This document shows, piece after piece, positions 52,133 through 57,299 of a stretch of 64,000 nucleotides of DNA (positions within the stretch are counted from its first letter, which is position 1; the number at the start of each line of letters is the position of its first letter). Made by a program: the position numbers and the translations under genes. The stretch spans positions 29,794 to 93,793 of the forward strand of contig RFNS01000177.1 of the NCBI GenBank assembly GCA_009927055.1, given 5' to 3'. The stretch comes from Alphaproteobacteria bacterium (GTDB lineage: Bacteria; Pseudomonadota; Alphaproteobacteria; UBA9219; RFNS01). The notes under the pieces were generated by a model. It did no database searches, had not been told where the DNA came from, and worked only from the letters and a program-made list of their open reading frames with translations.

Positions 52133-52897
52133 TCAACTGCGTTGCACGAACCAGAATCCCCTATCCCAAACAATATGACTTGGCGTCAAACCAAGCGATG
52201 GCGCGTCATCCTTCAATCTCTCAAAGAGTTCCTTACTTGCGCCTGTAATCATGACGGCTGGTACAGTCTGACGCTTTAATTCAAATCTGCTTTTAGCATA
52301 TCTAAACGCCCTCATCATCAGATGATCCCGTCTATCCACCACTTTGATTAAGCCTATCCCTTGATAATCAAAGCCCGACAAAATCCCATGGCTGGCCCTT
52401 ATCTTCTCAACAATGCTGTCTTTAAGAGGACGAAGCCCTCCGATAGACTCATGACCATCTTGAAAAACTAATATCGTCTCAAAATTTTCTGATGGCGGCA
52501 GCCTGCGCAGAACTGGAGATTTTTTCAGTTGGTCAACAAACCTTTCTAAACTTCTATCTTCACGACGAGCTTCAAGTGTATATGCCCCTGAAAACACACT
52601 GACATCACTTAAAATACTGACCGCGCGAAAGAGATTTTTGTCATCGGTACGCTGCGCCATCTCCAGCACAGCGTTTCCATAACGAGCAAACGGCCATAGA
52701 AATGGTTTTAACGCTTCATAAATTCCTTTTTTTCCTTCTGCCCCGCGTAACAGCGGCAAATGATGTGTGATAAGATTTGCCATACGATCATTGATATTTG
52801 CATGAATATTTGCCTGCAACAGGGCATTGGCCACAACGTCACACGCCCATGCAATTGTGCCGGCGCTGTGCCCACCTAAGAGATTATTGTCTGACAT
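52133..52897 (-). CDS. Hypothetical protein, low-GC (possible degraded hydrolase remnant)
   Basis: 254-aa ORF in AT-rich patch; GGHSAG (GxSxG-like) at residues 8-13, too N-terminal for an intact alpha/beta hydrolase. Confidence 0.35.
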   Translation of the reverse strand: MSDNNLLGGHSAGTIAWACDVVANALLQANIHANINDRMANLITHHLPLLRGAEGKKGIYEALKPFLWPFARYGNAVLEMAQRTDDKNLFRAVSILSDVSVFSGAYTLEARREDRSLERFVDQLKKSPVLRRLPPSENFETILVFQDGHESIGGLRPLKDSIVEKIRASHGILSGFDYQGIGLIKVVDRRDHLMMRAFRYAKSRFELKRQTVPAVMITGASKELFERLKDDAPSLGLTPSHIVWDRGFWFVQRS

Positions 52898-52967
52898 TTT
52901 TTATCCACTCTGTTTACGATGAAGGAAACGCAAAATAATTATCCTTACAAACAATAAAGTCAACCCA

Positions 52968-54389
52968 CTAAAACCCACTCGCAATACGTTCTACCAGCTG
53001 TTTCACGGTGGGGATGAAGCCGTTCGAGTAAAACGGATCGCGCGCAAAGCGATAGGCGTTGTGGCCGCTGAACATCAGGTTATCATTCACGCTGCCATCG
53101 TGGCTGATGTTTTGCAGCGTTTTTTGAATACAGAAACTGCGCGGATCAGGCTTGCGGCCTGTGCTGTTCCCCTCGTGCTGCGACCAGTTGGAAAAATGAC
53201 ACGCCGACAGGCACCCCATGCACCCGCCCTGATCGGCCAGAATTTGTTTGGCGTTTTCAGGCGTCACAAAAATAAGGGTTTGGTCGGGGGTGTGCAGCGC
53301 TTTGCTGAAACCCTGTGCGCGCCATTCAAACATGCGGGCTTCATCGGCCGGCGTGATGTAAACAGGCTTGCCCACGGCCGAAATTTGATAAGGCTGGGTA
53401 TGTTCGCCCACCGCTTCGGGCACATAGGCGATTTGCCGTTCGCTGCGCGCAATCAAATCCTGCAAGAAATCATTCCGCACGGCCGACGAATAAAAACCGG
53501 TGGGCGAGAATTTGTTCAAAAACACATCGCCTTCTTTCAGCGTCAGCAATTTTTCTTTCCACGCGTTGCTGATGGGACTTTCCTGCGTGACCAGCGGGCG
53601 CGTGCCAAACTGAAACGCGATGGGGCCAATTTCTGGGTTATCCAGCCACTTTTCCCATTCCGAAACCCACCACACCCCCCCCGCCATCACAATGGGCGTA
53701 TCGTGCAGGCCCACCTCTTTCATATAATCACGCAAGGCTTTCACACGCGGATAGGGGTCTTGCGGCACATCTGGGTCTTCGCTGTTCGACAAACCGTTGT
53801 GGCCGCCGGCGCGCCACGGGTCTTCATACACCACGGCGCCCAGCTTATCGCTGACCTTATGAAAAGCGCGCAGCCAAAGTGCACGAAACGCCCGCGCCGA
53901 CGACACAATGGGGTAATAATGCACGTTAAATCTGGCCGCAATTTCAGCCAGCTTATAGGGCATGCCGGCCCCACAGGTAATACCATGAATAAGCCCCTTG
54001 GCGCCTTCTAATATACCATGAAGCACACGCTCGGCCCCGCCCATTTCCCACAACACGTTCATGTGAATGCGACCCTGGCCACTGGCAATATCCCACGCCT
54101 TGCGCGCCTGGGTAATGCCGCCTTGAATGGCGTATTTTATCAGCTCTTCGTGCCGCGCCTTGCGATCTTTGCCATGATAGATTTGGGGGATGATGCGCCC
54201 CTGCTCATCATAACTGTCGGCGTTCACGCCCGAAAACGTGCCCACGCCACCCGCCGCCGCCCAAGCCCCCGTGCTGGCCCCATTGCTGATGGAAATACCC
54301 TTGCCACCTTCGATAAGAGGAAGCACCTCTTTACCAGAGATCACCAACGATTTTAATGCTTTCATAGGTGTATTTATGGCGGGATTCAT
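52968..54389 (-). CDS. Nitronate monooxygenase / 2-nitropropane dioxygenase-like FMN-dependent oxidoreductase (long form)
   Basis: TIM-barrel NMO motifs (...PIVMAGGV... , GGITQ...) with C-terminal CMGCLSAC cluster; about 473 aa. Confidence 0.65.
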   Translation of the reverse strand: MNPAINTPMKALKSLVISGKEVLPLIEGGKGISISNGASTGAWAAAGGVGTFSGVNADSYDEQGRIIPQIYHGKDRKARHEELIKYAIQGGITQARKAWDIASGQGRIHMNVLWEMGGAERVLHGILEGAKGLIHGITCGAGMPYKLAEIAARFNVHYYPIVSSARAFRALWLRAFHKVSDKLGAVVYEDPWRAGGHNGLSNSEDPDVPQDPYPRVKALRDYMKEVGLHDTPIVMAGGVWWVSEWEKWLDNPEIGPIAFQFGTRPLVTQESPISNAWKEKLLTLKEGDVFLNKFSPTGFYSSAVRNDFLQDLIARSERQIAYVPEAVGEHTQPYQISAVGKPVYITPADEARMFEWRAQGFSKALHTPDQTLIFVTPENAKQILADQGGCMGCLSACHFSNWSQHEGNSTGRKPDPRSFCIQKTLQNISHDGSVNDNLMFSGHNAYRFARDPFYSNGFIPTVKQLVERIASGF

Positions 54390-54406: not shown

Positions 54407-54693
54407 CTATAAATGTCTTTCAAAATCCATGTGACCGTGCAAAACGCGAACAACAATAATATTTTTCCCCTGCTTTTTATAAAAAACAACGTGCGAACCG
54501 ACAAGGCGCCGATAATATCCCAGCCGCACATCAGCGCACGATTGCCCAAGAGAGGGATGTTGATGAACCCGCGTCATGTCATCGACAATCCTTGTGACAT
54601 ATTCTTCGGCCTGTTGCAGTCCCCACTATTGGGCTGTGTAATCCCATATCTGGCTTAAATCATCTTCTGCTTTGGGCGTGAGCGAAGGGCCAT
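54407..54693 (-). pseudogene. parE: parE-like toxin gene, inactivated by 1-nt deletion near start and an in-frame TAG (amber) stop
   Basis: ATG overlapping parD stop (TAATGG) gives MALRSRPKQKMI* in frame 1. Frame 3 reads ...LTPKAEDDLSQIWDYTAQ-TAG-WGLQQAEEYVTRIVDDMTRVHQHPSLGQSCADVRLGYYRRLVGSHVVFYKKQGKNIIVVRVLHGHMDFERHL, collinear with Caulobacter ParE1; the TAG sits where the conserved Arg of the (Q)RWG motif would be. Confidence 0.7.
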
Positions 54694-54932
54694 TATTTTT
54701 TCTTGCGTTTTTTGGCGATAAATTGATGCGCATTAAAACGCACAGGTTTGCCGCTTTCTTCCCCCTCAATCAGGGCGGCGCGCAAAGCACCAAGGCGTAT
54801 TTCCTGATCTTCCAGAAGGCGCAACCCCGCCCGCACAACATCGCTGGCCGAACCGAAACGTCCCGCCGAAACCTGCTGCTGAATAAATGCCGCGAAGTGA
54901 TCGCCAATCGTGATTGATGTGTTTTTGGACAT
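54693..54932 (-). CDS. parD: ParD-family type II antitoxin (ParD1-like)
   Basis: MSKNTSITIGDHFAAFIQQQVSAGRFGSASDVVRAGLRLLEDQEIRLGALRAALIEGEESG... closely matches ParD1/COG3609 antitoxins. Confidence 0.8.
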   Translation of the reverse strand: MSKNTSITIGDHFAAFIQQQVSAGRFGSASDVVRAGLRLLEDQEIRLGALRAALIEGEESGKPVRFNAHQFIAKKRKKK

Positions 54933-55044
54933 TGCCCCCTCTGTCTTTGCACAAAGTACCAAAAAGTACCATAACATGGTATCTTTGGCAAGGGCTGTTT
55001 GCATAAATATTTTCTTGACCTTGGTTCAAATTATTCCGCATAAT

Positions 55045-55122
55045 GTGGGTGTGAGCACGCTTTTACCCCTTCTTCTCCTGCGACTGCTGCGCAGTGTTTT
55101 GCTGCCCCTTGGGGCGCGATAA
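55045..55122 (+). promoter_or_regulatory. Candidate leucine-rich leader peptide (attenuator) upstream of leuA: (M)GVSTLLPLLLLRLLRSVLLPLGAR*
   Basis: In-frame GTG starts at 55045/55051; 11 Leu codons in 23; followed by GCCCCTTGGGGCGCG hairpin plus TAATTTTTAT about 60 nt before leuA ATG. Confidence 0.35.
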
Positions 55123-55182
55123 TTTTTATGGCCCTTGGCCACCCTCCAAAATATACCAACCATCAAACAGAGAGAAAAAAAC

Positions 55183-56739
55183 ATGTCTGCCACCCCTATT
55201 ATTATTTTTGATACCACCCTGCGTGATGGTGAACAATCGCCGGGCGCCGCCATGACGCTGGAGGAAAAAGTGCGCATTGCCCGCGTGCTGGATGAGTTGC
55301 GTGTGGATGTGGTCGAGGCCGGGTTCCCCATCGCCAGCGAGGGCGATTTTATGGCCGTGCAGGCGGTGGCGCGCGCATTGCAGCACGCCGTGCCTTGTGG
55401 TCTTGCCCGCGCTGCGAAAGCCGATATTGAACGCGCCGCGGAAGCACTGAAAGTATCGCCACGTTTTCGCATCCACACCTTCATCAGCACCTCGCCCCTG
55501 CATATGAAATTTAAGCTGCAGATGGAACCTGATCGTGTCTTGGAAAAAGTGAAAGAAAGTGTGGCACTGGCCCGCAAACTGACCGATGATGTAGAATGGT
55601 CTGCCGAAGATGCCAGCCGCACCGAGCATGATTTTTTATGTCGCTGTGTCGAAACGGCGATTAAGGCGGGTGCCCGCACCATCAATATTCCTGATACGGT
55701 GGGTTACAGCGTGCCCCAAGAATATGAGGCGTTGATCAACATGCTGGCCAACCGCGTGCCAAATATCGATCAGGCCATTCTCAGCACTCATTGTCATAAC
55801 GATCTTGGGCTGGCTGTCGCCAATTCGCTGTCAGGTGTTTTGGGTGGCGCGCGGCAGGTTGAGTGCACCCTGAATGGTCTTGGCGAGCGCGCGGGCAACG
55901 CCGCTCTGGAAGAAATTGTGATGGCCATGAAAACACGACCCGATTTTCTGCCCTATACCTGCAACATCCACACCGAGGTGATTACCAAAGCCAGTCGTTT
56001 GGTTTCCAGCATCACGGGTTTTGTGGTGCAGCCGAACAAAGCCATTGTGGGGGCCAACGCCTTTGCGCACGAAAGCGGCATTCATCAAGATGGCATGATT
56101 AAAAACAAACACACCTATGAAATTATGACGCCCGAAAGCGTGGGCCTGACCAAATCATCGCTCAAGCTTGGCAAACTGTCGGGGCGCAATGCGTTTAAGA
56201 CGAAACTGCATGAACTGGGCTATGACCTGGGCGACAACGCGCTGGAGGATGCCTTCAAACGCTTCAAAGATTTGGCCGATGCCAAGCGCGACATTTGGGA
56301 TGAAGATATTATCGCGCTGGTGGATGATGAAATGGCCCGCAGCATGGATCGCGCCAAATTTGTGGGGCTTGAATTGCGCGCCGGCACGCGCGGCCCCGCC
56401 GAAGCCACGATGGAGATTGACGTGGATGGCGCCGTGCGCGCCACCAAAGCCTTTGGCAACGGGCCGGTCGATGCCATTTTTAACGCGGTGAGTGATTTGC
56501 TGCCCCACGATGGCAAACTGATTTTATTTCAGATTGGGGCCATCACCACAGGGGCCGATGCACAGGCCGAAGTGACCGTGAGGCTGGAAGAAAACGGCCG
56601 CACCGTGAACGGCCAGGGCACCGACCACGATACCATGGTGGCCGCCGCACGCGCCTATATTCACGCTGTCAACAAACTGGCCATCAAGCGCCAGAAAAGC
56701 GAACCACCAGTGTTGACCGAAAAAATGCGGGCGGTGTGA
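55183..56739 (+). CDS. leuA: 2-isopropylmalate synthase
   Basis: [15 protein letters not shown]..., HxH motif ([11 protein letters not shown]), C-terminal LeuA dimerisation/regulatory domain; alternative upstream ATG 55135. Confidence 0.85.
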
Positions 56740-56743
56740 TTAT

Positions 56744-57013
56744 CTATCGCCGCTCTGTCAGTTTTTCATTCAACCAATATTTGATCAGCGACTGATAAGG
56801 AATATCGCGTTTATTGGCGGCTATTTTAATCGACTCCAGCAAACTGAGCGGCAGTCGCAAAGAAATCGCCGTGGTCGTGGGTTTCAGATTGGGCATGCGT
56901 GTGCGTTTGGCTTTTGACCAGTCGAAATAATCGGTTGAATCGTGCTTCTCCCAAAAGCGTCTTTCCGCCGCTTCGCTGGAGAATTTTGGCACCGTCTTAA
57001 GTTTTTTCGTCAT
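56744..57013 (-). CDS. brnA: BrnA antitoxin (type II TA, RHH/CopG-like)
   Basis: MTKKLKTVPKFSSEAAERRFWEKHDSTDYFDWSKAKRTRMPNLKPTTTAISLRLPLSLLESIKIAANKRDIPYQSLIKYWLNEKL matches BrnA family. Confidence 0.75.
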   Translation of the reverse strand: MTKKLKTVPKFSSEAAERRFWEKHDSTDYFDWSKAKRTRMPNLKPTTTAISLRLPLSLLESIKIAANKRDIPYQSLIKYWLNEKLTERR

Positions 57014-57299
57014 AAATCGCACGCTCCTTCCGGTGCATAGGTCTGGCTGAGATGATACGCAAAAGTGTTTTATTTTTCCGCAATGTAAAGGTAAGGTGCA
57101 ACCGTTTACCTTCATCTGTCTGACCGAGAGCATGAAACCTTTCTTCGTTAGCGCTATGTATCACATCAGTGCCCACAACTAACGGTTCATTCAGCATCAC
57201 TTCCTCAGCTTCTCTGGATGTAATACCGTGCTTCTGCCAGTTTTTGCTGACATTTCCGGCATCCCTGTTAAACCCTCGTACATTCTCCCAATCGATCAT
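56997..57299 (-). CDS. brnT: BrnT toxin (DUF497/RelE-fold ribonuclease)
   Basis: MIDWENVRGFNRDAGNVSKNWQKHGITSREAEEV... ...RIISARPMHRKERAIYDE; toxin-first order overlapping brnA by 17 nt. Confidence 0.7.
   Translation of the reverse strand: MIDWENVRGFNRDAGNVSKNWQKHGITSREAEEVMLNEPLVVGTDVIHSANEERFHALGQTDEGKRLHLTFTLRKNKTLLRIISARPMHRKERAIYDEKT

Follow-up and report, generated by a model that had tools for sequence, protein, structure and literature searches.

Intact parD and a doubly disrupted parE in a ParDE1-type toxin–antitoxin locus of an alphaproteobacterial metagenome-assembled genome

Introduction

Among described type II toxin–antitoxin (TA) modules, the closest to the locus studied here are the ParD1–ParE1 pair of Caulobacter vibrioides (3KXE) and the ParDE1 complex 8C24. 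The locus lies in a stretch of 64,000 nt (the window) from the metagenome-assembled genome (MAG) GCA_009927055.1 of an Alphaproteobacteria bacterium (contig RFNS01000177.1, positions 29,794 to 93,793 of the forward strand), and consists of a parD gene followed by the remnant of a parE gene, all of its features being on the minus strand within 54407..54991. It shares with both described modules the two protein families, the parD–parE order and the overlap of stop and start codons, and its ParE sequence resembles theirs in length (about 95 aa) and in conserved residues. It differs from them in that parE is untranslatable, owing to a frameshift and an amber codon, and in the C-terminal tail of ParD, which reads GKPVRFNAHQFIA where the family consensus has GEPEPFDFDAFLA. 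We argue below that this is very probably a horizontally acquired chromosomal ParDE1-type module midway through decay, with parD intact and parE dead.

The decay of chromosomal TA modules by nonsense mutation has been reviewed, with ccdO157 of Escherichia coli among the examples (PMC7167474), and in Photorhabdus toxin-only pseudogenes (N = 185) were found to be far more numerous than antitoxin-only pseudogenes (N = 8) and a two-step decay model was put forward (PMC13617665). The present locus resembles these cases in the inactivation of the toxin first, by nonsense mutation or frameshift (PMC7167474, PMC13617665), and in forming a small TA islet that is set among core genes and has no mobile-element genes at its flanks; it differs from them in offering a single time point, from which we infer the trajectory. 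A parDE locus of Caulobacter crescentus in which parE is a pseudogene and ParD is left as an orphan, cited in PMC7354431, belongs to the same family and, going by that citation, is in the same state, in a separate organism and through a separate event. Orphan antitoxins have been discussed as possible, undemonstrated anti-addiction modules (PMC7354431). For the chromosomal ccd system of Erwinia chrysanthemi, anti-addiction was shown experimentally by cross-neutralisation of the F-plasmid toxin CcdB (Saavedra De Bast et al. 2008, in the form in which PMC7167474 and PMC7354431 cite it); the shared principle would be a chromosomal antitoxin acting against a mobile-element toxin, whereas here no close incoming toxin is known.

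Results and Discussion

An intact parD overlaps a parE pseudogene

The parDE locus lies between the divergently transcribed leuA and a gene for a 465-aa nitronate-monooxygenase-like protein (the NMO gene). parD occupies 54693..54932 (ATG 54932..54930, TAA 54695..54693) and encodes a 79-aa ribbon-helix-helix antitoxin of the ParD1 type. Its product scored 110.8 bits against Pfam PF03693 (ParD_antitoxin; residues 1-77, cut-off 21) and 95.4 bits against TIGR02606 (cut-off 46.2), bearing out an earlier note on this DNA that had called ParD intact and near the ParD1 type, and the nearest solved structure was Caulobacter ParD1 (3KXE chain C, E 3.5e-25). The protein retains each of the 28 columns that do not vary among its 31 closest relatives, and the N-terminal ribbon-helix-helix and dimerisation residues are conserved; the single departure from a near-invariant column, Asp67 to Asn, falls in the C-terminal tail. 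The gene stands directly 5' of the parE remnant, its stop codon overlapping the parE start (TAATG) by one base just as in the intact homologues L018, L030 and L049. Judged from its sequence, parD looks functional. Identical copies excepted, the protein database contained no ParD more than 73% identical to it.

The overlapping ATG (54693..54691) is the ancestral parE start, and it opens a dead frame of 12 codons, MALRSRPKQKMI, that ends at a TAA (54657..54655), start, frame and stop together spanning 54655..54693. The ParE-like frame opens at a Leu codon (54682), at -1 relative to the ATG. Between the ATG and this Leu-5 codon lie 8 nt, GCCCTTCG (54683..54690), where a multiple of three is needed, homologues having M plus three to five residues before L(S/T)P. 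The frameshift is most simply explained by the loss of 1 nt from either the CCC or the TT run of GCCCTTCG, the exact base being not identifiable. From the Leu codon onwards, an N-terminal segment LTPKAEDDLSQIWDYTAQ (54629..54682) corresponds to positions 5-22 of our own ParE hidden Markov model (HMM), made from 19 aligned ParE homologues. It covers the last part of strand beta0 and the greater part of helix alpha1, as predicted by transferring, through the 19-homologue alignment, the secondary structure of an AlphaFold2 model (pLDDT 92.6) of the closest intact ParE homologue, P0002. An in-frame amber codon, TAG (54626..54628), follows at the xWG position, at the predicted end of alpha1. Beyond it, 72 codons (WGLQQAEEY...VVRVLHGHMDFERHL, 54625..54410) match HMM positions 25-96 with 92.9 bits and run to the ...FERHL end that is normal for the family, where the natural TAG stop of the gene (54409..54407) closes a C-terminal segment of 54407..54625.

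The nearest in-frame ATG, GTG or TTG for the ParE-like frame lies 17 codons upstream, within parD, and is not preceded by a Shine–Dalgarno motif. Nowhere at the locus does a ParE open reading frame (ORF) of about 95-100 codons run uninterrupted from a usable start, the longest translatable piece being 56 aa, and the operon does not combine a translatable toxin with its cognate antitoxin, since the toxin cannot be translated. Disabled by two independent lesions, parE is here a pseudogene and not a member gene of the ParE family. The earlier note had rightly described a parE start followed by a frameshift, with the ATG frame ending at a stop and the ParE-like sequence lying in another frame, as well as a premature TAG and a ParE-like C-terminus. 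Its details needed correction: the indel, located there in a T-run at about 54680, falls inside a C3/T2 stretch (54690..54683) that is no real T-run, the TAG, given at about 54624, is at 54628..54626, and the C-terminal part has 72 codons instead of 70.

We found the identical ParD protein on five further public contigs, namely an ENA reassembly, Logan assemblies of two separate runs (SRR8075950 and SRR8075935), and a pair of GenBank MAGs, both labelled 'Alphaproteobacteria bacterium'. Across parD and the parE remnant, both lesions included, all five assemblies match the window with 100% identity. Two single-nucleotide polymorphisms in leuA (55833 and 55905) set the window apart from four of the five; the fifth, L005, ends before those positions. 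The dead parE is carried by at least two haplotypes, and both lesions appear to be fixed in the sampled population.

As a separate observation on these assemblies, L003 (GCA_010031005.1) is without 261 nt (55092..55352) that the window and the remaining assemblies contain. The gap takes in leuA sequence at the 5' end together with some of the leuA–parD intergenic region, which shortens the called leuA from 518 aa to 460 aa. No obvious long repeat was seen at the junction, and L003 has here either a true deletion or an assembly error.

The parE remnant retains the conserved positions of intact homologues

The 19 ParE homologues (42-53% identical) align gap-free across both lesions and start with M-x(3-5)-L-(S/T)-P. 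In-silico repair of both lesions gave a 95-aa product with similarity to ParE over the whole domain, matching Pfam PF05016 (ParE_toxin) at profile positions 3-89 with 76.1 bits, which is inside the range of ten intact homologues (70.2-85.7 bits). Against solved structures, the repaired product gave E values of 1.2e-20 with 8C24 chain A and 4.2e-19 with 3KXE chain A. On our own HMM it reached 131.5 bits, above 58 of 60 intact homologues; we set this score aside as biased, because that HMM was derived from the best matches of the repaired ParE itself, and preferred the Pfam scores for comparison. The alignment further showed that the remnant retains all 15 invariant and 10 near-invariant ParE columns. 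At the amber column, the two closest solved ParE1 proteins (8C24 and 3KXE) do have the Arg that the earlier note had placed there, while the 19 closest homologues have H, R, Q, E or N; the column varies across the family, and 'conserved Arg' is therefore too strong. Given these residues, a single CAG-to-TAG (C-to-T) transition would suffice, and the amber codon would then have arisen from CAG by one change.

The knockout of parE is probably recent, because the conserved columns are all kept and the Pfam score of the repaired product falls within the intact range. The proposal in the earlier note that the toxin decayed recently and the antitoxin was retained is accordingly supported by the conserved columns, the 76-bit score and the six assemblies. 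No intact allele of this parE turned up when JGI metagenome contigs were scanned with a wild card in place of the TAG codon, and the protein database held no ParE more than 54% identical to the repaired one, identical copies excepted. The nearest intact ParE, P0002 (54% identical), is encoded in a parD–parE pair with the usual overlap, which adjoins a type III CRISPR cas10 gene (L006 1..2794).

Orphan parD genes are common among relatives

To place this state among related loci, the best 80 ParD relatives from species-representative genomes were taken, of which 79 were evaluable, and the DNA 3' of each parD was scanned with the ParE HMM. parE was intact with a start codon in 60 of the 79 loci. 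In 12 it was frameshifted, interrupted by in-frame stops or truncated; three carried a lesion within the first ~10 codons (a frameshift in L027, TGA at codon 4 in L076 and TAG at codon 2 in L079), and another three had parE deleted down to its first 10-20 codons (L031, L038 and L055). The one remaining locus, L045, gave a weak, divergent match only. An intact parE was thus absent from 18-19 of the 79 loci (23-24%). The same state occurs in isolate genomes, those of Neorhizobium galegae (L044), Devosia nitrariae (L077) and Paracoccus yeei (L055). Two of the closest ParD relatives, P0127 (72% identical) and P0125 (71%), are likewise orphans. P0127 is followed in three assemblies by a frameshifted parE (L008/L009/L010 2743..3031) that no gene caller annotated, and P0125 by a 3-codon parE start remnant, ATGACAGGCTAG (L011 315..336), and then by a gene for a 272-aa PDZ-domain protein. 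We considered this PDZ protein as a new ParD partner and rejected it: its N-terminus is signal-peptide-like and the remnant ATGACAGGCTAG stands before it, which makes it an adjacent gene product that remained once parE had been deleted, and no new toxin. A recurrent stop or mutational hotspot at the amber site was also rejected. The stops of L064 and L015 lie near xWG but at Trp24 and Gln28, and the other lesions are scattered among the decayed loci, so that the amber site of the window is nothing special.

With about one-quarter of the 79 ParD1-type loci lacking an intact parE, caution is warranted in TA censuses that tally antitoxin and toxin matches separately. In one surveyed locus, from a Rhodospirillaceae MAG (L037 2400..2560), the parE remnant stops after HMM position 48 and is followed by tRNA-like sequence on the opposite strand, which suggests that parE was cut short at a tRNA-associated boundary left by integration or deletion.

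The parD control region

Upstream of parD, a ribosome-binding site, AGAGGGGG (54935..54942), can be read directly, its GAGG core lying 5 nt 5' of the ATG. It is preceded by a putative promoter/operator (54955..54991) that contains an inverted repeat (I1) and a direct repeat (D3). A -35-like TTGCCA (54991..54986) is the putative promoter element, and the candidate operator is made up of a half-site TACCA (54981..54977) and two half-sites TGGTAC, 10 nt apart (54971..54966 and 54961..54956). Among the 79 related loci, 73 have a TACCAA/TTGGTA hexamer within 110 nt upstream of parD, usually in the form GTACCAA-N4-6-TTGGTA, against a chance expectation that we estimate at ~5%. The motif is likely a family-wide candidate ParD operator that has been kept in the window, and it offers a ready candidate for studies of ParD autoregulation. 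As an inverted repeat GTACCAA-N4-6-TTGGTA(C/T), it stands 5' of ParD1-type genes (L012-L091) in Alphaproteobacteria, some Actinomycetota and other phyla, the copy in the window being at 54955..54982.

Toxin-first decay of an acquired module

The parDE genes have a GC content of 0.475-0.50, compared with 0.55-0.57 in the flanking genes, and the closest homologues of the NMO gene product (L092-L095; about 77-78% identical) are encoded behind a GDPD gene, with neither parDE nor leuA nearby. For both reasons parDE appears to sit at a lineage-specific junction and was probably acquired horizontally. We dropped an attempt to date the decay by synteny, as the closest NMO homologues are only 77-78% identical and lie behind GDPD without parDE or leuA.

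In such a module parD would still be transcribed from its own promoter, and ParD would bind the TACCA/TGGTA operator as a ribbon-helix-helix oligomer and repress its own transcription. In the parDE system of plasmid RK2, ParD alone is enough for autorepression, so an orphan ParD would simply keep its own promoter down. Ribosomes that end parD at its TAA could restart at the overlapping ATG but would yield only the 12-residue peptide MALRSRPKQKMI; with no ParE made, gyrase would not be poisoned, and neither post-segregational killing nor addiction would follow. Loss of the antitoxin ahead of an active toxin would be lethal; the toxin therefore had to go first, and toxin-first decay is the expected neutral route. 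The orphan parD would then be a leftover, most simply a relic that has not yet eroded. The state seen here is real but unremarkable, one stage of a decay process that is well documented for TA modules, and the locus represents one more clean case of toxin-first erosion with a freshly killed toxin, of little import beyond annotation.

Several points weigh against this account. The lack of drift in the remnant would fit continued selection on the sequence as well as recency. Both the transcription and the autoregulation of parD are inferred; we treat the promoter activity in this way because a strict scan for sigma-70 sites gave none on the minus strand upstream of parD. No orthologous locus was found in sister genomes through NMO synteny, so that the age of the lesions and selection on parD are not measurable. 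As for how common decay is, the surveyed loci were selected by ParD similarity and the survey therefore cannot show that antitoxins systematically outlive their toxins, and its count of disrupted loci may have been raised by MAG assembly errors.

The alternative that survives best, although unlikely, is that the orphan ParD has been kept by selection, either as an anti-addiction module against plasmid or phage ParE or as a recruited transcription factor, for example for the NMO gene. The parD ORF, its ribosome-binding site and the operator half-sites are all intact, as this view would have it, and an anti-addiction role has been proposed for orphan antitoxins (PMC7354431). The earlier note had raised such a role, and also selection against toxin activity, as possibilities. 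The NMO gene (52968..54365) begins with its ATG at 54365, 41 nt past the stop of the remnant and on the same strand; no terminator-like site was found between parD and this gene, which in relatives has a different gene upstream. Here the NMO gene may plausibly be transcribed from the parD promoter or from a promoter-like site within the parE remnant (54483..54456), and the latter could serve the NMO gene without any ParD. As to an incoming toxin, the plasmid ParE matches to the repaired ParE were all below 60% identity, the best among 72,556 plasmid records reaching 51%, which leaves no obvious incoming partner known, and a second ParD or ParE with which cross-talk could occur is absent from the window.

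The C-terminal toxin-binding tail of ParD (residues 62-76) bears on the same question. It is only 40% identical to the family consensus, whereas the N-terminal part is typical, and its identity is below that of 57 of the 60 ParDs that have intact parE partners. Such a tail hints weakly at private co-evolution or relaxed constraint, either of which fits it better than broad cross-neutralisation does. Tails of loci with and without an intact parE did not differ significantly (Mann–Whitney p = 0.18), the window's tail alone being low. Were ParD newly recruited, as a stand-alone repressor whose promoter drives the NMO gene or as an anti-addiction factor against incoming ParE, selection and not recency would explain the intact parD and operator; we regard this as improbable, and found no positive support for either the anti-addiction or the regulatory-recruitment idea, whose probability we judge to be similarly low. 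Neutral decay predicts precisely this combination, a parD still intact next to a parE only lately killed, and toxin-first decay remains the reading that we prefer.

Products of the parE remnant are improbable as toxins

Much less probable still is that the remnant encodes a functional mini-toxin or a ParD-binding fragment. A 56-aa ORF, MTRVHQHP...FERHL (P0001, 54407..54577), is annotated in GenBank as a 'RelE/ParE family toxin' and also appears among the gene calls of L003 and L005. It has an ATG and retains the C-terminal region, scoring 39.5 bits on the Pfam ParE profile, but over positions 37-89 only, and an AAGGA motif lies ~11 nt upstream of the ATG, a suboptimal spacing for a Shine–Dalgarno-like motif. 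In the AlphaFold2 model of P0002, beta0 spans residues 4-7, alpha1 9-26 and alpha2 28-47, followed by three strands within 63-88. The ORF begins at the position of Met42 in P0002, six residues before the end of alpha2, and is predicted to be without beta0, alpha1 and 14 of the 20 residues of alpha2, the hairpin that packs on the sheet of the ParE fold. Among the 120 best matches listed, moreover, every protein except the fragment itself is 95-101 aa long. We consider the ORF a pseudogene fragment, because it appears to have lost its N-terminal strand and almost the whole helical hairpin, and the GenBank entry should be left out of toxin counts. Antisense genes and RNA elements over the locus were also sought: the plus-strand ORFs had no Pfam match, and there was no Rfam match.

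Nor is it credible, to our mind, that a little full-length ParE is made through a -1 ribosomal frameshift just past the start combined with read-through of the amber codon. The remnant is otherwise perfectly conserved, as if still translated. However, GCC-CTT-C at 54690..54683 is no X-XXY-YYZ slippery heptamer, and the shift would have to come no more than three codons after the start. The gene itself is terminated by TAG as well, at the conserved ...FERHL C-terminus, the normal one for the family, so that TAG is a working stop codon in this organism; no suppressor tRNA is encoded in the window, whose only two tRNA genes are those for tRNA-Gln(TTG) and tRNA-Lys(CTT). Two independent rare recoding events would be required together, and the scatter of stops and frameshifts across the other decayed homologues argues against a conserved recoding site.

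That the lesions are sequencing or assembly errors in a truly intact parE is hardly conceivable: the source is a MAG and the indel adjoins short C3/T2 runs, but such runs are not error-prone on Illumina platforms (the platform assumed for these data), the two lesions differ in kind, one being an indel and the other a substitution, and their identical presence in six assemblies, two independent single-run ones among them, and on two haplotypes makes an artefact very unlikely.

Neighbouring low-GC islets

Beyond leuA, at 56744..57299 on the minus strand, lies an apparently intact pair of brnT (100 aa, 57299..56997) and a brnA/CopG-type antitoxin gene (89 aa, stop at 56744). The gene callers disagree on the start of brnT, giving 66 aa or 100 aa. 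The pair occupies a separate low-GC patch (0.445-0.47) and forms a second small TA islet less than 2.5 kb from the decayed parDE. On the other side, downstream of the NMO gene, the stretch 52200..52999 has a GC content of 0.425-0.44 compared with ~0.56 nearby; the ENA gene calls place a 254-aa protein there, for which Pfam gave no match, and the stretch may be another acquired islet.

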